DNA from: Carcharhinus longimanus
Taxonomy: Eukaryota
Direction of reading: 5' to 3'
DNA length: 64,000 nt
Assembly (NCBI GenBank): GCA_030264375.1
Contig: JASCQW010000027.1
Location: forward strand, 80,674,182 to 80,738,181
The notes beneath the pieces are model-generated. The model made no database searches, was not told the DNA's origin, and was given only the letters and a program-made list of their open reading frames with translations. How positions within the stretch are numbered: position 1 is the stretch's first letter; the number at the start of each line of letters is the position of its first letter. Below, piece after piece: positions 17,365 through 62,715 of this stretch. The position numbers and the translations under genes are program-made.

Positions 17365-17493
17365 ACCTTACAAAAGATCATCAGCCTGAAATGTTCATGT
17401 TTCTTTCTTCACAGATGCTTCCAGGCCTGCTGAGTAAATCAGCATTTTCTGTTTTCATTTTAGATGTTTAGCATCTGCAGTGTTTTGCTTCTA
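17365..17493 (+). mobile_element. Old PLE 3'-tail remnant with decayed hammerhead region
   Basis: ..CAAAAGATCATCAGCCTGAAATGTT..CACAGATGCT.CCAGGCCTGCTGAGT..AGCATTTTCTG..AGCATCTGCAG is related to 44058-44160 and 26790-26926. Confidence 0.6.
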
Positions 17494-25958: not shown

Positions 25959-26789
25959 TCCCTGTAATCAAACAGTTTAGAATGCGAGTTCTAACTGGCT
26001 TTTGTTACAGGTATCTGACCCTCCTCTTCTTGTTGTTCCCCAGAAGACAAGTCGAGCTTTGTTGGTCTATTTTAAACCCCTTTGCTTTTGCTGTTTCCCA
26101 AAGAACTCATCAAATTCTCCTGGTTGAAGACCAACAACAGATCATGGAAGGAGTGTCAAACAGCCAATGAGCTCTTCCACTAATTCATACCGTTTTCCAG
26201 GGGACAACTTCACAGCGAAATGATCACTTCACGATGTTATTCCCTCTAGAAATTCCTGCTGTCTGTTCTGAATAAATCCATTTTGTCAACAAATGTTGAA
26301 ATATTTGCTCCACGCTTGCAGAGTTTCATCTGCTCAAAGCCATAAAGAGAAAAGTCAGCAATTTGGGGAAATGAGTCTTGATGCACAACAGTGAATTGCT
26401 TTATTTCACAGTATGATAAATGCACACACTGGCAGCTACGACTGGACTTAACTGATTCAAGCTGTAGAATCTTGTCTTTGCATAATGATACATATTAAAG
26501 AGAATGCCATGCTTCCCCACAAGGTTTGTCTTATATGACTTAACTCATTTCCATGGTTCAATCAGCACTCCCATGTGTCATCTCACTAAATGTTCATGCA
26601 GCTTTTGTCTTAAATAATTGAATTCCCTTCTAGCTTCCCTGTTTCCAAAAACCTGTCTCTCAGTGCTCCAGTGGCATTTGCTGTTCACCAACAGAAAACG
26701 GGATCAAATAATTTCCAGTATATTCAGTGTGAGGTAGTTCCCATTTCTGAGGCAGTTTAATGAATTTCTCAGACCCATTTGTAAATTTG

Positions 26790-27012
26790 GATAAAAGCAA
26801 ATTACTGCAGATGCTGGAATCTGAAATCCAAAGAAAAAATGCTGGAAAATCTCAGCAGGTCTGGCAGCATCTGTAAGGAGAGCAAAGCGCTGATGTTTCA
26901 AGTCCAGAAGACCCTTCGTCAAAGCTTTGACAGAGGGTCATCTAAACATCAGCTCTTCTCTCTCCTTATAAATGCTGCCAGACCTGCTGAGATTTTCCAG
27001 CATTTTCCCTTC
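26790..27012. mobile_element. Palindromic PLE-derived mini-insertion (family A) with two head-to-head hammerhead copies
   Basis: 12-bp TSD TTTGTAAATTTG (26778-26789) and TTTGTAAAATTG (27013-27024). Inverted arms are centred on AAAGCTTT (26921-26928) and match the PLE 3' end at 44058-44160. Confidence 0.85.
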
Positions 27013-27159
27013 TTTGTAAAATTGCCTGAATACAGGGTTGGAAGCATGGACTGCACAAACTGGGGTCCAAGTTCTGAGGTTCATTTTGCCTAACAGGGAG
27101 CCGAGCATGGTTACGTGCTGCAAATTATGGTACAGTATTTACCATCTTGTTCACGTAAT

Positions 27160-30985: not shown

Positions 30986-33900
30986 CTTTACCTTATGAAC
31001 AGAAGTTTGTAAAAATTGATTTTCTTAAACAATAGGTGGTTGTTAACTTGAAAAACATTTTGGTCAGTGGGGTTTGGTGGGATGGGGGTGGGGGGGTGTG
31101 CGTTGGCACCTAATGTTAAAGGGACGCTGCTGATGGAGGCAAGCACCTACCCCCTTCACCAAATAGGCTATTTTTCCGGCTTCCTCCGTGCTGCCTTTAG
31201 CATGAAAATTGAGGTTGGCTGGGAAACAACCCAGACATGGTAAATAATTGGCAAGGACAGGCATGCCTAGGAATTGCCCCTCCCTGTATAAAACTACTGA
31301 GAGGTCAGGGTGGGCAGGAACACATTGGAAGGCCATCTAAGAAATTTTACATTATAGTTCTGCATAAAAGACTGTAGGCAATGTAAAATTCTGCCCTCTG
31401 TCATGGAGTTCTCCCTTTGGAAGAGGATACAGCCAGAAAATGTTAGCTTTGATGAGGTGAAAGCACCCTCATATTTCCTTGCACACTAATTAGCATGACC
31501 CTCAATGTATCCTTTCTCATCAATCAGCACAGCCTATTTGTGACTATTCTGTTTTCCACTTTAAGATAATTATTTAATCAGTGTCATATTTCCTACAATT
31601 AAATGATATCTTACCTTATCCTTTAATCCCTCATCTGGAACTTTACATGAAAATGTGAATCTAAGCACATAATGCTACTGCATCCATCGAATTATAAAAA
31701 TCATGGCCAAAATATCTGAAATTTTACCTTGGCATCAACTCACTACACCTATTTTGCAATAGGAACAGTTGGAATTTTTCTTCTGCTTTGTTGCCATGGA
31801 ACGTTTGCCTATGACCCAGATTTTATTTTAAATTAGAATCCCTGCACTTCCAAAGTAAGAGTGGTGAGAAGAGAGGTTCGAATGAAAATAGGTGCCATTA
31901 AACACATTTCAGCAGAAGATCATTGCCTCTGTCTCCTTCACTTACAGAGATGGATAGTGTTTGGAAGTTTTCAGCAATGTGGTTACAGGTCTGAATTTGG
32001 ATCATCAGGATTAAAAATTCTGCAGAATAAGTGAGAATTATTTATTTTGTTCTGCATATAGCAAAAATAAAGATGTTAAATCACCCATTCTGTTTTCTTG
32101 CAGTCATTCTGAATTCTCATTTCAGAATATAAATGAGAAAACTGTGCTTTTCACAAATAATCCATATGCACAAGATCTAGGGATAGAATATGAGAGAACG
32201 TCTCTGATTACTTCTTGCTCGTTCTCTAAAAGTCTTTTTTAAATAATTGATAAATCCTGCCAAATGCATACAGGTGATTTGGAATCTTCTTTCCTGAACT
32301 TTGTCTAACATAATAAACTTGATATAATTTCTAACTTAAGTTTCAAATTATTTAGAAGAAGGGGAATGAGAACTATTTCGATAGAAGACAGAATAAATGA
32401 TGCAGGGTAAAAACAATGAATTAAGTTTTACCTGTTATCACAGTTTATTCTGTTAAATATACAGCATTTCGCAATGACCCATAATGTAATATATCATAAT
32501 AGACTAGAAATGTTAACTCCCTTTCTCTCTTCACGGATGCTTCCAGACCTGCTGAGTTATTCCATACTACATCTGGATATGTATCATGGGGCAAGATTCT
32601 GAACCACACCATCAGGCTGAAATGTGGGCCCGAAGTCTGTACTATGTTGGAAACATTTGTAATGTAAGAGTCTGGCACACACATGATTAATGCAGAACTG
32701 CCTACAGTACTGCCTACAGTGACATAAGTGATCTCATGACTCACATCTAGGGGATCAGTCTAGTGTTACTCAGAGCTGTGCGTACAAGCAAGCATGGAAA
32801 TAGCTCCTAGTTTGAACCCTTTATGCTACATATGCATTTTGTCCTTATAGAGGATAAGTACATATCGTTAATCTACTTAAGATGCAAAGATTTCATTAAG
32901 GCCTACCAAGCAATCTTCAGGACCAACACTCTACGACAACAATAACTCAATACAATTTTCCTTGAGATGGTCAGTTAATGAACAGAGGACAGGCTCTTAG
33001 AGATAGGAACATCACTGACAAAGCAGCAATTGTCACCAATCCTTAATTGTCCTCGAGAAGGTGATGGTTGACTGCCAACTTAAACCCTGCAGTCCATATG
33101 GTATAGATGCAACCACAATGCTATTAGGGAGGAAGTGCCAAGATTTTGACCTGGCATCAGTGAAGAAACGGCAATATAGTTCCAAATTAAAATGATTTAT
33201 GACTTGGAGGGGAACCTGTAAGTGGTGGTGTTTCCATATGTTGTTTGCCCTTGTCCTGCTAGATACTAGAGTTCCTGGTTTGGAAGGTGCTTTCAAAGAA
33301 ACCTTGCAGGTTCCTGCACTGCCTCTTCTGGATAGCATGTACATCTGCTATTATATATTACTGGACCGAAAACACTCCCTTGCAGCTGGAGGACCAATCA
33401 GGAGCGGCAGGCTGCATTATTTCATGTGGTTTCAAGAGGTCAAAATAATCATACTGTTTGCACAGATATTTCTCAGATTGTGCATGTGCTGTAGTAAGAT
33501 GCACTGTTCAATAGCATGTGATGGGGCATTCTGGATAAACATGTATGCATACACATAATAATATAGGTCCTATACCTTTGAAAAATGTAACAATAACACA
33601 GGTTGTCATGGAAAGTAAGGAAGGAAGGCAGTCTCCCTTCAGCTTGTTGAAATTTAAATTTTGCAACCAGCTTACATTGCAGAGTTAGGTGATTCCCTCT
33701 ACAAATTCCTAAGGTTACTGCACCATCCAGGTAGATAGGAGGACACTGATCTGTCTGGGGTAACTTCCCCTTCACCACCCCAGTCTCCCAGTGCATCATC
33801 CATAGGCAACTTAATTAGTCCCGGAAACATGGAAGCCAGCTGGAATATCTCTGTCAGACTCTTCAGTTAGTTTTTATTGGCTATTATAGGTTGAATCATC

Positions 33901-34960: not shown

Positions 34961-36997
34961 CTGAGGAAATGAATTGTAGTACATTTCTTTGATCCAGAAC
35001 GCTATCTACCTAATCCCTTTTCTTCACTATGATGTGACTATATTTTCATTCTGAAGTAACTCGTTCGAGCCTGGTGTCCCTTTGCCAAATTTAAATTTAT
35101 TTACATAGTATGCAATGCTCAGACAGGTACTTCCTTCTGCAGCGTATAAATTCAGAGTGCCAGGAAGCCTGACACTCCATGTTACGTACATATGCAGGTC
35201 TCTTTCACTGGGCAAGCCATTACTGCCTTAAACTGGGAGCTCGTATTTTAAGATATCCACATCATGGGCCTCATGACAAGGGCAAACTTCCCATTCCTAA
35301 TCACTACTCAGCAGCATTTGTCTTAATTCGTGGTTGTAAATGCAAAACTATGCAACATTTCCATTCAAATATGATGATTCCCCACATTAAAACAGCTATT
35401 GATGCTTTCTCTCAGGCCTCAGACATTAAGAAAATTTCCTAAAATAAGGTAATCCCAAGGTGCCCAGGACATCTTCATGAAAGGGGAGGAAAATTTATTA
35501 AAAAAAAGAAACGGGACTGGGAAATACAGCAGTAGTAAAATACCTTTGTTATTTCAGGGACGTTATGAGATTAAATTGACACTTGAGCAAAGTAATAGTG
35601 ACAGAAGAAATTAATTTCGGCATTACTGACTGACTAATACCTGTATTTGCTCTGACAGGAGAAAGAAAGGTACCAGCTGAACAGAAGGTGATAGCAATGG
35701 TTGCTCTCACAGTGCATGTATTGTATGAAAATCCTCTTAACACCAGCATACATCCTTAAAGCACTTATTCATTACATTTAAATCTCAGAAAGCAGGAGAT
35801 GTCAGCCCACTCTATGAAAGTAATACAGCACCTAAAAATCTTGAGTGGTGCCTTTTTATCATACTGTTTTCCTATTAATAATAGTAGTCACTGTAAAATT
35901 AGCCTCCGATGTGTTAATTCAGGAAGGCATGTATAATGGAATTGAAAATTGGCAATTTCTGAATGCAACCTTCAAAAATGGGGCCCAAACATTAAACCAT
36001 AATTCTCTTTCAAATGCTGACAAATTTCCTGAACATTTGCAGCACTTTGCTCTTTTTGATACTGATCTGCAACTTTGTTAGTTCTAGTTTCCATGTTATA
36101 AACATTCAACAAAAATAACACAAAACAGAAATATGTGTCTTAACACAAAGCTATCGAATTTAGCTGATTATCGATTCCTGGTTCATAAATAAGGGTGAGA
36201 GTAGGATACAATGTAACACTTCAGTTGATGTAAGAGCTAAATCCATTTACAATTCAAATAAAGATTCTTGCATCATGTTGCCATATTGTTGCTAGCAACT
36301 AAGATGCCGTTTTCTATAAATATTTTGGAAATTTCTCTGCAAATAGTATCATTGCTCCCAGTGAAATGTTCCCAAGCAACAAATTGCAAGAAGTACTTTA
36401 GCACTTCATCAAACCCTAGTGAGTAGAAAATTTAGATATGCGAAGTACATAAAATGGTAATTTAAAAAGAAGAATTTGGAACTACATCACCATTTAGATC
36501 AACAAAGCTGCCACATCCCTGAATTTGCACCTTGCAGGGGTCATTGTCTGCTCCATCTTTCCCAACTCATTTCCACTTCCCACTGCAGCCTCACAATCCC
36601 CCATCATCATAAGGATCGAGGTGCTATTTTGCAATGAGTAACAGGGTATTCCTTCCTAAAAAAAAATCACTGTCCTGTAGCTCAGTGTACTGAAATTAGT
36701 TTGCTGTTTACAGGCACAATGTATACATAAGGGGATCAGGGGTTATGGGGAAAAGACAGGAGAATGGGATGAGAAAAATATCAGCCACAATTGAATGGCG
36801 GAGCAAACATGATGGGTTGAGTGGCCTAATTCTGCTCCTGTGTCTTATGGTCTTATTTGTTAATGTCTTTCTTGCATTTGCTTGAAGTCTTTTTCAGTAT
36901 TAGTAACAGCCCCTAACTTTGTATTATCCTTAAGAATTTGATACCTGATTTCAGTAAAGTGGAGAAAGTTCCCTAGATCTGCTAGTGTGGAGGAAGA

Positions 36998-37300: not shown

Positions 37301-37554
37301 CTACAACAACTGAACTGGGATACAGATTATGCAAATAGCTGTATGCTGATAGAGGATTGCAAACTCAAGTACCAGCCCACAATTTATCCAATTTTCAGAA
37401 GCATTGACACATATACATCCTACTTACCAGCTGTCCTGGAGAAAGTGGATACAGTTGGAAATTATTAAATGTTACGACCAGATGTTTGTAAAACTCAGTG
37501 TGAAAGATGAGGTTCTGTTTCACAAACCTGAATTGAGCTTCATTGGAACAGATA

Positions 37555-37645
37555 TAAAAACAGACAATGCTGGAAATACTCAGCAGATCAGGCAGCATTT
37601 GCAGAGAGATAAACGGAGTGAATGTTTCAGGTCTATGATTTTTTC
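37555..37645 (-). mobile_element. Old PLE 3'-tail remnant
   Basis: AATGCTGGAAATACTCAGCAGATCAGGCAGCATTTG..GAGAGA..ATGTTTCAGGTC is related to 26838-26905. Confidence 0.6.
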
Positions 37646-38670: not shown

Positions 38671-40621
38671 CAAAGAGCATTCATATCCAAAATCTTTGTT
38701 CTCTCCACAGATATTGCCTGACAATCTGAATGGTTCCAGCATTATGCAAGAGTTATTCAACGCATACAATTTGTATCAATGAATCACAAGAACACCATAA
38801 TGGTGGATAGCTGTTATAACCAATGGGAACCAATAGGAACATACTGTGAGGATCAGCTGTCCCAATAGGCAACATAATAAATGGCAAAATGATGTGATGA
38901 TCAGCTGACTAGCTGATCTGGTATAAATAGAAAGTAGATTGGGGGAGCATTTGTGGCCCAGCATATAGCTCAAGTAGTGGTGTAATTAAGTTTCTTTATT
39001 AAACCTTTACTTTGTGAAATTAGTTCCTTCACTGCTTGCCATTGGAGCATCCTTACTGCCCAATGAATATAGTTATCAAAATTTAAGAAACAAAATGTAC
39101 TAAAAGAGAAGTTAGAAGGTAATTTGCACCTTTAATTTATCTCACCTACGCAATAAGCAACAAAGCTATCTTTAACAATAAAAGAAACATGAAATATGTT
39201 AATCTTGTTGACATGAAACAATGACTTATGTTATGGCTTCAATAATGTGATTTAAATGTTGTGTACAGGAGGTATGGTGACGTGTGCATGATTAATAGTC
39301 ACAGCATGGACTTAAGGTAGTTGCACAGATGGTTTTGAAGAGCACATTTGTTTAGCTTTTAAGATCCTTCCCTTTCATTACTGTGAGCACTTGGATTTGA
39401 AACTTAAAACTCATTTTAAAAATATTGACTAGAATTCTTCATACCTCCATCATTTCCTCTTAATGTTTCACATTTCCAGCATTCATAAACTTCCTTTCAG
39501 TTCAAAGGCTGTGGAATGGGATTGCAAAGCAATGAATCCATGCAAGTGAGGACTTTAACAATAATTGATAATTTTTTTGAATTTCCAAATAAGCGATGGT
39601 TTCTACTGGCTTTGCAGAGAAATTTAACTGCAGTTTGATAAGAAGAAGTCTTTGTTTTTGCCATGTAATTCAAATGGATAATAGACATGATTTTATTGAT
39701 GGGGTTTGCTGTCTCCATCCAATGTGTCATTGTACCAAGAACCATCAGTTTTTTCTTTCCCAGAACTGAATTTGGTTGACGTTTGATGTTGTAGATACTG
39801 CCCTGTATGACCAAGTGAGATGAAAACAGATGCTGCTGCAGTCCTCAGTAAAAGAGATGCTCTGTGAGACACAATTCCTGCTGATAGCCAGTGACTAGAT
39901 TTCTTTTGACACGCTGAGCCAATTTTCACCTACAAGAAATGATGCATGTGAAATCCATTTCTTAATCATTCCACCCTGTAGGTTGTGTCGAGTATGTGTA
40001 AAATGTCCCCTCCTACTGTTCTGATGTATTTCTTAATTCTTATATGACTGGTGATAAATGCTTGCTGCTACCAAAGACTTTTTTTGGGGGGGGTTGGGAT
40101 GAAGCTTTGTTTTTAAGTGGATTAAGTAGGATGAGGGAGGGGAACAAAAAGTTTCAGTTAATACATCTTGTGAGGACTGGAGCAGAAAATAACAAAATGT
40201 AAAATGGAAAGAGGAAAATGTAAAGTCATGTAAATGTATACATTTAACATTGCGAGGAAGAAGAGATTTGATTGATGCAGTGAACAGACTTGACGGAAGC
40301 AACATTCGTGGCAGACATTGGAAAGGTTATTACAAAAATCGTGAGAGGCATTGATCATTCAATTTTCACTTGCTCACACTGAGAGGAATATAATAAAGTG
40401 TACAGTACAGAAGCATATTTAAATGGGAAAGATTCAAGCAGAAACAATATTGTAATGGTGATTAGCAGTGGCCCGCCTGAGTGGCACCATCTAAACAAAA
40501 ACAAACACTTCAGCTGCAACAGGCAACCAATACATATTACTGAAGACAGGCCTGAAATGTATATCTTTTAGGTTTACATTAGCAAACAAATGCTTTACTG
40601 CCCGGGTGAGTAAATGAAAGA

Positions 40622-41145
40622 AAAAAACAAAGAAAATTACAGCACAGGAACAGACCCTTCAAGCCTGCACCGACCATGCTGTCTGACTGCCCTTTTGGGG
40701 ACTATATCCCTCCATTTCCAGACTTCCCTTAAAAGTCACTATCGTATCCGCTTCTGGTACCTCCCCCGGCAGCGGGTTCCAGACACCCACCACCCTCTGT
40801 AAGAAGAAAACTTGCCTCATACATTTCCTTTAAATCTTGCCCCTTGCACCTTAAACTTATGCCCCCTAGTAATTGACTCTTCCACTCTTGGAAAAAGCTT
40901 TTGACTCTCCACTCTGTCCATGCCCCTCATAATCTTGTGTACCTTTATCAGGTCTCTCCTCAACCTCCGTTGTTACAGTGTGAACAAACCAAGTTTCTCC
41001 AACCTCTCCTCATAGCTAATGCCCTCCAACCAGGCAACATCTTGGTAAATATTTTCTGTACCCTCTCCACATCTTTCTGGTAGGGTGGTGACCAGAATTG
41101 AACACTATAGTCCAAGTGAGGCCTAACTAAGTTTTTATAAAGCTG
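40622..41145 (-). mobile_element. CR1 LINE 3' part (continues at 44161)
   Basis: Reverse-strand CR1 C-terminus and a CTGTAATTTTCTTTG tail; breaks at the TSD TATAAAGCTG. Confidence 0.88.
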
Positions 41146-44100
41146 TCCTTGACCTGCTGCAATGTTCCAGTGAAGCTCAACGCAAAGTGGAGGAACAGCA
41201 TCTCATTTTCCTGCTAGGTACTTTACAGCCTTTTGGCTTCAACATTGAATTCAGCAACTTCAGATCATATGCTCTACACCACCTCGACCCCTTTGTTTTC
41301 ATTTTCTCGACCTTTTATTTCTTTATTGTCTTTCTTCATTTTTCTTCTCCCCCACTCTTTTCCATACCTGATCCCCCCCCACCTTTGCTNNNNNNNNNNN
41401 NNNNNNNNNNNNNNNNNNNNNNNNNNNNNNNNNNNNNNNNNNNNNNNNNNNNNNNNNNNNNNNNNNNNNNNNNNNNNNNNNNNNNNNNNNNNNNNNNNNN
41501 NNNNNNNNNNNNNNNNNNNNNNNNNNNNNNNNNNNNNNNNNNNNNNNNNNNNNNNNNNNNNNNNNNNNNNNNNNNNNNNNNNNNNNNNNNNNNNNNNNNN
41601 NNNNNNNNNNNNNNNNNNNNNNNNNNNNNNNNNNNNNNNNNNNNNNNNNNNNNNNNNNNNNNNNNNNNNNNNNNNNNNNNNNNNNNNNNNNNNNNNNNNN
41701 NNNNNNNNNNNNNNNNNNNNNNNNNNNNNNNNNGACAATTACCTGCCCTCGATCTTTTCATTGGGAACTGTCAACGGGACATTGGCTGTTGTAATTTTTC
41801 TGACCCCTCACCCATTCCAACCTCTTTCCTCCTGAACTTTCCACCCTTTGCTCCCTCAGGTCCAACCTTGACATTGTCATCAAACCTGTCAACAAAGCAG
41901 GTGGTGTTGTCACCTGGTGTTCTGACCTCCACCTCGCAAAGGCTGAGTGCCAACTCTCAGATACTTCCTCCTACCTCCCCCTGGACCATGACCTCACCAC
42001 TGAACATCATGCCACTATCTTCAACACAGTCACAAACCTCATTTCCTCTGGATGCCTTCCATCCACAGCTTCCAACCTCATAGTCTCAAACGCTGGACAG
42101 ACCGCTTCTATCTACTTCCCAAAATCCATAAAAAAGACTATATTGGTAGGCCCATTGTGTCAACATGCTCCTGCCTCAAGGAACTTATTCCCTCTTATCT
42201 TGACACCATCCTCACTCCTCTGGTTTATTCCTTCCCCACCTACATCCGGGATTCCTCTGATGCTCTGTGTCATATTGACAGCTTCCAGTTCATAGGCCCT
42301 AACCGCCTCCTATTCACCATGGATGTGCAATCTCTCTACACCTCCATCCCTCACCAGGACGGTCTATAAGTTCTTTGCTTCTTTTTGGAAAAGAGGCCTG
42401 AACAATTCCCATCTATCACCACTCTCCTCCACCTGGCTGAGCTTGTTCTATATCTCAACAATTTCTCTTTTAACTCATCTCACTTTCTTCAGATCAAAGG
42501 AGTAGCAATGGGTACCCGCATGGGTCCAAGCTATACTTGACTTTTCATGGGGTATGTGGAACATTCCTTGTTCTAGCCCTACCCAAGTCCCCTCCCACAA
42601 TCCTTTACCAGTACATCAATAGCGATTTTGGTGCCACTTCACGCTCTTGTCCAGAGCTCAAAGTTCATCAACTTCGCTTCCAGTTTCCAACCCTCCATCA
42701 CCTTCACCTGGTCCATCTCAGACACTTCCCTTCCCCTCCTTGAACTTTTGGCTTTCATTTCCAGCAATAGACGATCTAACACTATCCATTATAAGCTCAC
42801 TGACTCCCACAGCTATCTAGATTACAGCTCTTTACACCCCACATCCTGTACNNNNNNNNNNTTCTCTCAGCTCCTTCACTTTTGTCATACTTGTTCCAAT
42901 GATACCACTTTCCAAAGTGATGCATCTAATATGTGCTCCAACTTCTTCAACCATGGATTCCCTTTACAGTTGTTGACAGAGTCCTCAACAACGTGTGGTC
43001 CATCTCCTGTGCCATGGCCCTCATCCCCTTCCCTCCCTCCCAGAACAAGGATAGAGTCCCCCTTGTTCTCATATTTCACCCCTCCAGCCTCCGCATGCAA
43101 TGCAAAATCCTCCACCATTTTCGTGAACTCCAGCATGATGCCACCACCAAACACATCTTCCCTTCACTCCCTCTGTCAGCATTTCGTAGAGATCGTTTCC
43201 TCTGGGATAACCTAGTCCACTCCTCCACTATGCCCAACACCTCCGCCGTCACTCCTGGCACTTCCCATGCAATCACAGAAGGTGTAACACTTATCCCTTT
43301 ACCTCTCCTATGCTTACCATCCAAAACCCAAAACACTCATTCCAGATTAAGCAACACTCCACTTGCACCTCTTTCAATTTGGTGTATTGCATTCACTGCT
43401 CCCAGTGTGGTCTCCTCTGTATCGGAAGGACCAAGCGTAGACTGGTGATCACTTTGCTGAGCACCTTCGGTCTGTGAGCAATCAGGACCCTGACCTTCCA
43501 GTTGCTTGCCATTTTAACACATCATCCTGCTCCCATGCCCACATGTCCGTCCTCAGTCTGCTGCAATATTCCAGTGAAGCTCAACACAAACTGGAGGAAC
43601 AGCATCTCATTTTCTGACTAGGCACTTTACAGCCTTCCGGTCTCAACATCGAATTCAACAGCTTCAGATGATTTGCTCTATCCCTCCTCGATCCCTTTGT
43701 TTTCATTTAATTTATTTTTACTGTTCTCGATCTTTTATTTCTTTATTGTCTTTCTTCATTTTTCTTCTCCCCACCACTCTTTCCCCTACTTGATCCCCCC
43801 TTTCCTTACCTTTGCTTCCCTTTCCCCGCTTTTTTAATTTTACCTCCCTCCTATCCATTTCCTTCCCCTCTTCCCCAACATCTTCATCTGTCACAGTTTA
43901 CCCTCTGGTTTCAGCTTTTCTGCTGTTTGCCTATTCACACACTTTATTCTCTCTATGGACTGCCATTAGCAGTCCTTTATCCTGATTTCTGTGGTTATGA
44001 ATCATCTTTCATTCCCTCTTCCTGCAGTATGCATATCTCCCACTTTCTATGCCTTTTAGCTTTGACAAAGGGTCGTCTGGATTCAAAATGTCAGGTCTTT

Positions 44101-44160
44101 TCTCTCCTTATAGAGCTGCCAGATCTGATGAGATTTCCCAGCGTTTTCTCTTTTGGTTTC
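41146..44160 (+). mobile_element. Penelope-like retroelement, near full length, decayed (RT + GIY-YIG endonuclease, pseudo-LTRs)
   Basis: RT motifs FYLLPKIHK..GRPIVS, TMDVQSLYTSIPH, GVAMGTRMGPSY. GIY-YIG region VYCIHCSQCGLLCIGRTKR..EHLRSV..PVACHFN..EQHLIF.LGTLQP.GLNIEF. Direct repeat 41155-41389 versus 43558-43810. 10-bp TSD TATAAAGCTG (41136-41145) and TATAAAACTG (44161-44170). Many frameshifts and stops. Confidence 0.93.
44058..44096 (+). ncRNA. Decayed minimal type I hammerhead ribozyme in the PLE 3' pseudo-LTR
   Basis: AGCT-TTGACAA-A-GGGTC-GTCTG-GATTC-AAAA-TGTC-AGGT. G12 has changed to A (CpG-type decay), so it is probably inactive. Confidence 0.65.
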
Positions 44161-47187: not shown

Positions 47188-47748
47188 TAATGAGTTAGAT
47201 TAATTTTCCACCTATCGATCATCTATATGCTCTGAGAGGTCAAGTCCATTCTGAACATTGGTGAAATATTGACAAGAAGCCAGAAATTCTGGAAGTTTCC
47301 AGCTTTTCACAGCTATTTATCAAAACCAGTGAATTGATGGTGGGCATTACAGATCGGTTAACTTGACATCTACATTTGGAGAAAGGTTCTTGGAAGCCAA
47401 GACTAACCGAATGTTATTTTCTGAAAGCAGAGCTGTGCATTGGGTAAACATGTTCATTCACAGCAGGTGCACACATGGGATGTTGAATAACAACAACTAA
47501 CATTGATGAAGCGCTTTCCGTGTAGTATACCAACTCGCTGGCACTTCACAGAAGCTCAGGCAAACAAAAAGTGGATGCTGAGATAAAGAAGGTGATATTA
47601 GGTAATTATTCGAAGGAGGGCAGAGAAGCATAAATACAGCATAGATGTGGCTACAGCAGAAGACAGCATTATAAAACAAACACAGGGAGACCAGCTGAAT
47701 AAGCATTGCCACAGCTAGCCCAAGAAATTACAGTTAAGTTAAAAAAAT

Positions 47749-47954
47749 GATAAAAACAAATTACTACAGATGCTGGAATCTGAAACCAAAAGAGAAAATG
47801 CTGGAAAATCTCAGCAGGTCTGCAGCATCTGTAAGGAGAGAAAAGAGCTGACGTTTCGAGTCCAGACGACCCTTTGTCAAAGCTTTTCTCTCTCTCTTTT
47901 CTCTCCTTACAGATGCTGCCAGATCTGCTGAGATTTTCCAGCATTTTCTCTTTT
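47749..47954. mobile_element. Fold-back PLE-derived mini-insertion (family A)
   Basis: Inverted arms 47788-47847 and 47894-47954 (one mismatch, one indel) enclose a hammerhead. Sequence matches 44058-44160 and 26790-27012. No clear TSD. Confidence 0.85.
47846..47884 (-). ncRNA. Minimal type I hammerhead ribozyme, complete core, U3:A8 variant
   Basis: Minus strand AGCU-UUGACAA-A-GGGUC-GUCUG-GACUC-GAAA-CGUC-AGCU: stem I AGCU/AGCU, 5-bp stem II, GAAA core, palindromic ACGU in place of stem III, GUC cleavage triplet. Confidence 0.75.
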
Positions 47955-48419: not shown

Positions 48420-49327
48420 AGAGAAGCAGAGAGGTTCTGGGCCAGAACATGGGCTGCAGATTAGGAAAGAGGCTTGTAAGGATTTGGTCATGTAATTAGA
48501 TCACATTGTTGATGGTGAAGGATTGCATGAAACACCCAATAAGAAAGGAGCCATAATGAAGGTGCTGAGACCAGAAAACATTGCCCAGCTGAGGTATTTT
48601 CTGGGGCTCATAAGCTATTGTAGCAAATTTGTGCCTGCCTATGTGACAGTATTGAAACCTCTGTATTGTTGATGGCAGTGGGCACTGGAGTGTGAAAATG
48701 CTTGAAGGAGGCATTGAAAGAGTGCTGGTTCTTAGTCCATTTTAATCCCAAGTTATTGCTCCAGCTGGTCTGTGACGCATTGCTGTATGGCCTAGGACCA
48801 GTGATATCTTATGTGATGCCCAATGGACAAGAGAGACCCATCGCATTTGTGTCAAAATACCACTTGAAGATGGAAGAGATCTACGTGCAAATTGAGAAGG
48901 AGGCACTAAGCATCATTTTTGGCATTTCCAAGTTTCACCACTATCTGTTTGGCAGGAAGTTTGTTTTGCTGACAGACCACGGATCACTGACCAAGATTCT
49001 AGGACTGCACTTGGAGACTCCATCTATGGCCTCGGTTTAATTGTAGAAGTGGGTATTGATATTGTCAGGCCATTGTATGAAATTTGTTATTGCCAGTCAG
49101 ATCAACATACAAATGCAGATACCTTATCCAGGCTGCTGTTGCGTTGTCACAGAGAGGTTCTGAACGCAGTTTTCCAGATCATATATTTCTTGCAAGGTGA
49201 TAAGGTACCGATTTATAACTGCTAAGGTGAAAAAAGCTACAAGAAAAGACCCCATACTGAGTCAAGTAGACAACCTGGTCCACAAGGGGAGGATAAGACA
49301 ACTGAGGCCATATTTAAATCAGCAATG
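48420..49327 (+). mobile_element. Gypsy LTR retrotransposon pol fragment (RT end, RNase H), decayed
   Basis: QLRYFLGLISYCSKFVP; LVCDA..YGLG.VISYVMPNGQERPIAFVS..Y.QIEKEALSIIFGISKFHHYLFGRKFVLLTDH; HTNADTLSRL. Confidence 0.92.
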
Positions 49328-49560: not shown

Positions 49561-49913
49561 TTGACTCTGTCTACACTTCCCACTGCCTTGGCAGTTCAGC
49601 CAGCATAATTAAGGACCCCACACACACTGGACATCCTCTCTTTCATCTTCTTCCATCAGGAAAAAGATACAAAAATCTGAGGTTACAAATCAACCGACTC
49701 AAGAACAGCTTCTTCCCTGCTGCTGTCAGACTTTTGAATGGATTTACCTTGCATTAAGTTGATCTTTCTTTACACTGTAGCTATGACATTAACACTACTT
49801 TCTGCACTCTCTCGTTTCCTTCTCTATGAACGGTATGTTTTGGTTGTACAGTGCTCAAGAAACAATACTTTTCACTGTATGTTAATATATGTGACAGTAA
49901 TCAATCAAATCAA
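49556..49913 (+). mobile_element. Rex1/Babar-like LINE 3' end
   Basis: SIDSVYTSHCL..ASIIKDPTHTGHPLFHLLPSGKRY..NRLKNSFFPAAVRLLN and an (AATCA)n tail. Confidence 0.85.
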
Positions 49914-49929
49914 ATTATAGGTACTATAG

Positions 49930-53593: not shown

Positions 53594-53811
53594 AACTCAA
53601 GAACAGCTTCTTCCCTGCTGCCATCAGACTTTTGAATGGATTTACCTTGCATTAAGTTGATCTTTCTCTGCACCCTAGCTATGACTGTAACACTACATTC
53701 TGCATTCCCCTGTTTCCTTCTCTATGAATGGTATGTTTTGTCTGTATAGCGTGCAAGAAACAATACTTTTCACTGTATGTTACTACATGTGACAATAATA
53801 AATCAAATCAA
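53594..53811 (+). mobile_element. Rex1/Babar-like LINE 3' end
   Basis: Closely similar to 49696-49913; ends AATAATAAATCAAATCAA. Confidence 0.85.
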
Positions 53812-53920
53812 AGATCCACAGCAATGTGGATGACACTCAACTATCCTTGGACAACGAGGGATGGACAATAAATGCTGGCCAGCCAGTGATGCCCATGTCC
53901 CATGAACGAATAAATAAAAT

Positions 53921-55379
53921 TGTTAGTGTAGGACAATTGTTCGTTGTGTGATATGTGGGTCGTCGTTCCCCAGTCCTTGAGAAGGAAAGTGTTGGAGCAA
54001 TCGCACTGAGGGTGCCTGGGGTGGTGTGGATGAAATAAAGGTGGCTCGCAGCTAGGTGTGGTGGCTGAGGACTGATGCCTGCACTGATGAGAAGGTGGGT
54101 GCAACATTTTGTTGTATACCAAGATCCGGAAGCCACCATTGCACCATGTCATCATTGTACCATGGGAATGGCCAAGTGGGCCTGGGGAGCAGGCCCACAT
54201 AGATTTTGTGGGACCAGGTGAAGGCCAAATGTTGCTGGTGGTCATTGACACACACAAAAAGTGGCCAGAAATGATGGGTGGGATTCTCTGGCTGTGCTCG
54301 CCCCAAAACTGGAGAATCCCATTCAAGGTCAATGGACCTTTGCATGGTCCGCCCTCCCCGCCTACTACGATTCCCATGGCAGGCGGGACAGGAGAATTCC
54401 CCCTGATGTGTAAGAAATCGATGACCACAAAAGTAACCCTGGACAAACTCAATGACATATTTGCTAGGTTTGGATACCCAGACCAGTTTGTAAGTGACAA
54501 CAGACAGCCGCTCATATCGCAGGACTTTGAGTACATGGAGTTAACATGGTGTTCACCATGTACATTCTGTACCTACCACCCAGAGACGAATGGGCGAGCA
54601 GGGTGTTTTGTACAATCCTTGAAGGCATCATGGGGGTGTAGGGTCATCGATGTGAAGATTGAACCAGTTCTTGAGCGTTTACAGGAACTCCCTGTGTGCA
54701 ACAACAAAATGCTTCCCAGTGGCGTTGGTGTTTGGGACACAGTTGTGTACAAGTTGAGGCCTGATGAGACTTGACAAATGGTGGAGAGGAACCAGGAGGC
54801 ACACATAGGCCATCAAGCCCAACATGCCAAGCTGAGGGCATTTCAGAAGGGTGAATGGGAACTGTTCAGAAACTACATTTTGAGAGAGAAGTGGGTACTA
54901 GCTGCAATTGTAGCAAAGAAAGAGCCATTGTTGTACACAATGGAACTCGAAACAAATTAGTGTGGCACTGATATGCAGATCAGCTGTTGGTTGCCCCATG
55001 TCAAGTGGTGGGGACCCCACCAACAAGGTTGGAGGTGTTCCAAATGTTGCTAGCGGAGATACCAGGAGAGGGAGTTGATAGCTCCTCCACTCACGGGGGG
55101 AGCCAGAGGCTTGACATTGGTGACGGATGATGTGCAGGAAGAGGAGCCACCATTGGTTGTGTTGTCAAGACCACATTCAACAGAGAGAGATCTGAGGCTG
55201 GTTCCAGCTCTCAGGAAATAACCCTTATGAGATTGTCTTTCCTCCTGACAGGTTGATCATGTCAATGTAGGATGGATGTTGGAGTGGGGAATGAACTATA
55301 GACTGTATCAATTCTAAACATTTTAAACAGACTGTGGATTCTTCACCAAGTACCCCGTATTATGTAAAAAGGGAGATAA
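53921..55379 (+). mobile_element. Gypsy pol continuation (integrase) and 3' region, decayed
   Basis: VVVPQSLRRKVLEQSH; PWEWPSGP..HIDFVGP..LVVIDTHKKWPE; FARFGYPDQFVSDN; YHPETNGRA. Purine tract AAAAAGGGAGATAA at about 55366-55379. Confidence 0.9.
54275..54403. mobile_element. 129-bp MITE inside the Gypsy integrase
   Basis: Inverted ends GGGTGGGATTCTC and GGAGAATTCCCCC; duplicated TGA at 54272-54274 and 54404-54406. Confidence 0.75.
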
Positions 55380-62639: not shown

Positions 62640-62715
62640 TCAAAAACAGAAATTGCTGGAAAAACTCAACAGGTCTGGCAGCATCTGTGAAGAGAGAAAC
62701 ACAGTTAATGTTTTA
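62640..62715 (-). mobile_element. Old PLE 3'-tail remnant
   Basis: AAAAACAGAAATTGCTGGAAAAACTCAACAGGTCTGGCAGCATCTGTGAAGAGAGAAAC.CAGTTAATGTTT is related to the family A arms. Confidence 0.65.

Follow-up and report, generated by a model that had tools for sequence, protein, structure and literature searches.

How did a hammerhead motif with a U3:A8 core come to lie at positions 47846-47884 of the 64,000-nt stretch of DNA that we analysed (the window), and should this copy be expected to cut itself? We think it quite probable that the motif belongs to an abundant, endonuclease-bearing Penelope-like element (PLE) family, that it forms the truncated 5' edge of a fold-back insertion, that its U3:A8 pair likely comes from the master element, and that this copy is, by prediction, inert. 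The host lineage (probably chondrichthyan) is likely to be the only novelty, as the U3:A8 core variant has already been published.

Read directly from the letters, the minus strand from 47884 to 47846 is a 39-nt minimal type I hammerhead motif with U3 and A8 in its core. In stem I, AGCU (47884-47881) pairs with AGCU (47849-47846). The core box UUGACAA (47874-47880) has U3 at 47880, A8 at 47875, and A9 at 47874, and positions 3 and 8 are able to form a Watson-Crick pair. One additional A (47873) separates the core box from stem II (47858-47872), which has 5 bp, including one G-U pair, and a 5-nt loop and is closed by G10.1-C11.1. The remainder of the core (47850-47857) consists of the GAAA box (47857-47854), an ACGU palindrome that replaces stem III, which is the form that permits dimers, and the GUC triplet. 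All of the core boxes, i.e., (N3)UGAN(N8)A, GAAA, and the UH triplet, are present. From the hammerhead numbering, the cut is predicted to fall between 47850 (C17) and 47849. An earlier reading of this DNA (the sequence-only reading) had reported the same minus-strand letters, stems I and II, GAAA, and GUC triplet, and our re-reading agrees. It made no mention of the additional A, of the fold-back in which the motif lies, or of two further arms at 26.9 kb, one of them with G8.

A search with a relaxed descriptor that leaves positions 3 and 8 unconstrained was run within the 64-kb window; it gave just one match on the two strands, and that match is 47846-47884. If stem I must have at least 4 bp, the descriptor still gives one match in the window, as compared to none in 200 dinucleotide-preserving shuffles. 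There were no matches in Rfam at gathering thresholds, and the 39-mer by itself folds no better than shuffles (z -1.23). Because the 39-mer is not unusually stable and has no match in Rfam, the identification rests on the anatomy of the motif and on its position. Both back the earlier proposal of a PLE-type minimal type I hammerhead, as the motif sits in a PLE terminal repeat.

The fold-back insertion and its predicted fold

The motif is the 5' edge, or inner end, of a short fold-back PLE insertion (47750-47954). The long arm, which is on the minus strand and runs from 47884 to about 47750, continues past the motif with the 3' end of the PLE repeat (47750-47845), and it is identical at 124 of 135 positions to the long arm of a second fold-back at 26.9 kb. 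Members of the family end at 47749/47750 and at 47788, and these pile-ups of ends mark minus-strand positions 47750-47788, within the long arm, as an optional tail. At the palindromic stem I, the long arm is joined head-to-head to a short arm (47896-47954, plus strand), which contains the repeat downstream of the hammerhead and has neither the core nor the tail. Between the AGCT of stem I and the inverted arm is an 11-nt junction filler of the GA/CT-repeat type (47885-47895). No target-site duplication is evident at this locus, and there is no partner hammerhead in the same orientation near this copy.

The fold-back forms a very stable predicted hairpin (-111.9 kcal/mol, z -15.7). The pairs of stem II have probabilities of 0.99-1.0 in all three contexts that we folded. 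The fate of stem I is different: its probability is 0.43-0.89 in the isolated motif and 0.01-0.03 in the fold of the whole locus, where the inverted arm is predicted to take its 3' strand. Similarly, the probability of a fold with an open core is 0.024 for the isolated motif and 0.0003 for the whole locus. Because there is no same-strand partner nearby and the inverted arm displaces stem I, we predict that the 47.8-kb copy is probably inert. So the description of this hammerhead as complete holds for its letters but probably not for the motif within its own locus. As for dimers, the nearest-neighbour model favours a misfolded dimer (-23.6 kcal/mol) over the double hammerhead (-16.9 kcal/mol), but these energies leave out tertiary contacts in the core and help from proteins, and they are indicative only.

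We considered whether a misfold that pairs G5A6C7 with GUC (probability 0.95-0.98) is a sign of inactivity, and we rejected this; representatives in print, e.g., from Acropora and Ixodes, share C7 and CGUC (PMC4209133). We also rejected a non-LTR retrozyme, as retrozymes of this kind are defined by head-to-tail tandem units with a hammerhead in each (bioRxiv 10.64898/2026.07.22.740005). Such units are absent, and the 47.8-kb locus is a head-to-head fold-back with a single core.

Related copies and the core of the family

In the second fold-back of this family (26790-27011), two arms, each with a hammerhead, come together at the AGCT of stem I. Its left arm has U3 and G8 (26922, minus strand), and its right arm has U3 and A8 along with a change of A9 to G and a 7-nt deletion. 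Both arms have CAUC instead of CGUC. Two directly repeated 8-nt sequences (26778-26785 and 27013-27020) make up a candidate target-site duplication. In each fold-back of the window, one arm is long and the other is short.

A decayed partial-tandem PLE of the same family lies at 41145-44160 on the plus strand, with its upstream repeat beginning at 41145 and its downstream repeat at 43549-44160. It encodes a broken reverse transcriptase (RT) at about 42004-42849 and then a broken GIY-YIG-type endonuclease at about 43230-43665. The RT matches RVT_1 from Pfam with E = 0.00039, which falls below the curated cut-off, and the Pfam search of this element gave no match to GIY-YIG; the RT motifs and the VY..C..C...IG motifs were read in the broken frames. 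Among the Atlas look-alikes of this element, 10% of members have GIY-YIG, and a search of PDB sequences with the RT gave nothing useful. Taken together, the family in the window has the features of endonuclease-positive PLEs: an RT and then a GIY-YIG domain, a partial tandem repeat, an inverted 5'-truncated copy, and a one-sided tail. A run of Ns (41390-41733) covers the place in the upstream repeat where a second hammerhead would be expected.

The hammerhead of this element (44058-44096, plus strand) is on the coding strand, downstream of the RT and the endonuclease, which places the motif on the sense strand of the PLE terminal repeat. It has kept U3 and A8, but GAAA has become AAAA, stem I and C15.2 are changed, and only one of the motif's three CpGs remains. 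The sequence-only reading was right that the same box is present here (TTGACAA at 44062-44068), but we do not agree that this element is the parent. Given that the two copies are identical at just 100 of 113 positions, that this one has AAAA for GAAA, and that its frames are broken by stops and frameshifts, it is a more decayed relative.

Other matches in the window were set aside: those at 54771 and 61581 have no family sequence downstream, and the profile search has no match at 35076. The profile search did identify repeat ends from older and more diverged sister families of PLEs at 17370-17465, 32501-32564, 35980-36061, 37553-37633, 38693-38744, and 62643-62714. None of these six has an intact core box.

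We aligned four sequencing runs (X4, X5, X15, and X21) to 47745-47892 at 80% likeness. The family is very abundant in three of these data sets, with 46,767 aligned contigs from X4, 29,206 from X5, and 1,508 from X15. From X21, there were just 6 reads, all less than 90% alike, and we do not count X21 among the data sets with this family. The search of runs listed no RNA data set with the family; X15 may be of that type. The 3' ends pile up at 47749/47750 and at 47788, which are 38-39 nt apart, and this pattern reproduces the one-sided tail of 30-40 bp that PLEs have. In the ribozyme half, the largest pile of loose ends among those listed is at 47884 (384 contigs in X4, 172 in X5, and 32 in X15). 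For X4 and X15, the consensus of the sequence behind these loose ends agrees with the repeat that precedes the 44-kb hammerhead on its upstream side, so the 47.8-kb and 44-kb loci belong to one family.

The copies of the family appear to be decaying without selection, because mutations are about equally frequent at the catalytic G12 and at the other base of its CpG. As rough shares of the summed depth, G12 is changed to A in 20.9% (X4), 8.6% (X5), and 18.3% (X15), and its partner base is changed in 16.4%, 8.0%, and 20.2%. The change of G16.2 to A (47852) accounts for 36, 18, and 31% of depth; in X4 and X5, this is roughly double what is seen for changes at other CpGs. The excess may come from a subfamily that has CAUC and in which the stem III palindrome is broken. 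We did not see a 5' end of the kind that cleavage would define: the depth ratios at 47849/47850 are 0.88, 0.99, and 0.85, and there is no pile among the listed ends.

Is U3:A8 the ancestral state of this family? Within the window, U3 is present in all four arms and A8 in three of them, and the three arms with A8 come from three separate loci. In the sequencing data, depth drops to 5-7% past 47884, and alignments tend to run that far. There is no special step in depth at position 8 (0.78, 0.73, and 0.86, versus 0.75, 0.79, and 0.81 one bin earlier), and depth falls a little more sharply into the final bin (0.63, 0.59, and 0.72). This profile argues against a majority of C3:G8 among copies that are at least 80% alike; A8 and G8 are indistinguishable by depth. 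The letter differences tabulated from the reads reach to 47860, and all 17 changed places counted for X5 fall within that part, apparently because of a filter near the end of the aligned stretch; the CpG at 47867/47868 and positions 3 and 8 lie beyond it.

The one arm with G8 matters because C7-G8 is a CpG, and the decay of this CpG yields exactly A8. Perhaps, then, the master had a U3-G8 wobble (UUGACGA), or the family was mixed, and A8 reflects methyl-CpG decay and is only apparently compensatory. Besides the arm at 26922, it is consistent with this scenario that changes at the motif's other CpGs make up 7-36% of depth for each base and that a U3-G8 representative, from Saccoglossus, is in print (Fig. 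S3 of PMC4209133). The A8 of the 44-kb copy is weak evidence on this question, although the sequence-only reading relied on it, because that copy has lost most of its motif CpGs. A better argument for an inherited A8 is that the 47.8-kb copy, which retains all three of its motif CpGs and so looks little decayed, has A8 nonetheless. The occurrence of A8 at separate loci also speaks against decay, and a rough hand estimate from the rates of change in the reads favours an A8 master by a few fold. So we consider the decay scenario to be unlikely, and we believe that A8 was probably inherited from the master element. The claim that UUGACAA is a family trait rather than decay is supported for U3 by all four arms in the window and is likely for A8, the alternative being CpG decay from a core like that of the U3-G8 arm.

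We also searched more widely with a pattern that allows either C3:G8 or U3:A8. There were no matches in viral contigs and three in metagenome contigs. All three have C3:G8, two are identical, and none belong to this PLE family, so they are of no use for assessing the covariation of positions 3 and 8. Minimal C3:G8 hammerheads with a similar stem II (GGGUC/GACCC) are found in metagenome contigs at L001 118-145 and L002/L003 301-334, and the one in L001 follows the end of a frame that resembles a PLE endonuclease. A search with the tail pattern had no matches in viral contigs, and its two matches in prokaryote genomes lack family context, so we read them as chance.

Mechanism, rival explanations, and published relatives

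In the master element, the terminal repeat would have the motif on its sense strand. If a transcript holds two copies in tandem, these might pair via ACGU to form a double hammerhead, or a protein of the element might help the RNA to fold, and slow cutting would follow, 3' of GUC. U3:A8 would preserve the Watson-Crick pair between positions 3 and 8, which brings residue 8, with its ribose, into the active site. To give the 47.8-kb copy, reverse transcription may have begun at both of the usual internal start sites, which are separated by 38 nt, and this would account for a long arm and a short arm. The AGCT of stem I is self-complementary, and the arms would then have been joined head-to-head through it, and the inverted arm would outcompete stem I.

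Another idea is that the fold-back is itself a functional or self-propagating unit, either a hairpin mini-element or a regulatory RNA that has been kept because its arms clamp an active monomeric hammerhead. The stability of the hairpin and the intact core would fit, as would the presence of comparable joints in further contigs and runs. But the register in which the arms pair displaces stem I, and the junctions differ by locus, with both cores kept at 26.9 kb and one at 47.8 kb. An inverted arm with a one-sided tail is also the ordinary product of PLE integration (PMC8557442, PMC3846280), and a retained function is hard to square with how often G12 is changed across the family. We think that a functional fold-back is very unlikely. 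It is harder still to believe that the likeness to a hammerhead arose by chance. The unremarkable fold of the 39-mer and the lack of an Rfam match are what one would expect of a chance match, but none of the shuffles gave a match to the descriptor, and the motif lies in a PLE terminal repeat, on the sense strand, which is a known site of such motifs. A fold-back copy of a U3:A8 master, probably inert, remains our preferred reading.

The sequence-only reading implied that a U3:A8 core in a PLE was new, but the variant, a descriptor for it, and families that have it have been in print since 2014 (PMC4209133). It was correct that U3:A8 can replace the C3:G8 pair, as natural covariants have been published (PMC3088659, PMC4209133). 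Perreault 2011 reported natural hammerheads with U3-A8 cores and stated, crediting Przybilski & Hammann 2007, that such cores were already known to be active in vitro (PMC3088659). The compensatory pair is the same as ours, but the section on these covariants does not tie them to minimal PLE motifs, which is the type in the window. Cervera & De la Pena 2014 used their own descriptor to find about 1,300 minimal hammerheads with U3-A8 in Cercyon PLEs of Schistosoma, and among the families of S. mansoni with this core are Sm3 (761 motifs) and Sm4 (39 motifs) (PMC4209133). According to the same article, the PLE consensus has an extra nucleotide between 9 and 10.1, G10.1-C11.1, and a palindromic 15.2-16.2, and these minimal hammerheads occur in opposite-strand pairs and have low activity, in multimers only.

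The window family resembles Sm3 and Sm4 in several respects: type I without a stem III loop, the palindromic 15.2-16.2, the extra nucleotide, G10.1-C11.1, U3-A8, and a location in PLE terminal repeats, mostly as single dispersed copies along with nearby opposite-strand pairs. Unlike those families, it probably comes from a cartilaginous fish (judging by the look of the repeats), its N7 is C, and both strands of its stem I are the same palindromic 4-mer. In Fig. S3 of PMC4209133, every chordate row has CUGA, and there is no chondrichthyan among these rows. Tandem retrozymes have been described in one chondrichthyan, in a 2026 preprint whose main text does not contain the word "covariation" (10.64898/2026.07.22.740005). 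In the literature that we examined on PLE hammerheads, on U3-A8 and C3-G8 cores, and on chondrichthyans, we found no report from a shark, and we did not find activity data for a U3:A8 core in a minimal dimer-type motif. Lunse et al. 2017 described PLE hammerhead variants that cleave as dimers, according to a review (PMC6765202), and that article could contain such a family.

The Poseidon PLE of Anolis carolinensis, PAc, is similar in that it has an RT with a C-terminal GIY-YIG domain, a partial tandem arrangement, a hammerhead in the repeat, and two 3' ends that define a tail (PMC11167929). The core of PAc, by contrast, is C3:G8. Cutting by the PAc hammerhead was seen only when protein was present, and insertion in vitro did not require the hammerhead (Frangieh et al. 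2024, PMC11167929). One-sided PLE tails have been described (PMC8557442, PMC3846280), and in the anole element the tail was traced to two start sites of reverse transcription (PMC11167929). Fold-back PLE insertions are also in print, with a head-to-head inverted 5'-truncated copy, a palindrome at the junction, and a tail on one arm (PMC3846280; PMC8557442). At both of our loci, unlike in those insertions, the junction palindrome is stem I of the hammerhead itself.

If A8 is the consensus of this family, then the published covariation of the core extends to a vertebrate lineage for which we found no earlier report. In that case, hammerhead censuses of such genomes need a descriptor that allows both pairs, as the 2014 authors used (PMC4209133).

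Junctions at stem I

Both fold-backs in the window turn at stem I, and the sequencing data include similar joints. Of the 15 joints listed (from a total of 45), 11 change strand, and in 8 of these 11, one side is at 47881-47886. These 8 joints have 27 contigs from X4, versus 6 elsewhere. The likeness of the reference to the family stops at 47884, so junctions that lie further upstream would also project to this position, but 12 of the X4 contigs among the listed joints reach 47885-47886, which is harder to explain by projection.

The short arm at 47.8 kb starts at the position (nucleotide 1.1) where cleavage would create the 5' end of an RNA. One could imagine that an active U3:A8 hammerhead became fixed in a vertebrate PLE lineage, probably in a chondrichthyan, in a separate event from that in flatworms and possibly driven from CUGACGA by the decay of CpG, that it was then amplified to very high copy, and that short arms starting at 1.1 are fossils of reverse transcription that ran off the ends of cleaved RNAs. 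If so, the genome would hold evidence of in vivo cutting by PLE hammerheads while the elements transpose. We consider this quite improbable. At 26.9 kb, the turn is at the opposite strand of stem I, depth has no step at the cut site, and palindromic junctions have already been ascribed to self-priming (PMC3846280). Also, the pattern expected from run-off would equally result if a full palindrome lost the sequence between its two AGCT copies. The present evidence does not separate cleavage from microhomology or from pausing of the polymerase at these junctions. The larger question is what PLE hammerheads do in vivo, and the stem-I junctions could make their role testable across thousands of loci.

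Downstream of the predicted cut site, the minus strand has two pyrimidine tracts that end in CAG and resemble splice acceptors (47845-47829 and 47797-47779). After the tract at 47845-47829 come an ATG and a frame of 22 codons. Introns are known in PLE repeats. Elsewhere in the window, decayed frames at 48696-49225 and 53841-54774 look, by eye, like the RNase H and integrase of LTR retrotransposons, and a 218-nt direct repeat (49697-49914 and 53595-53812) lies near them.
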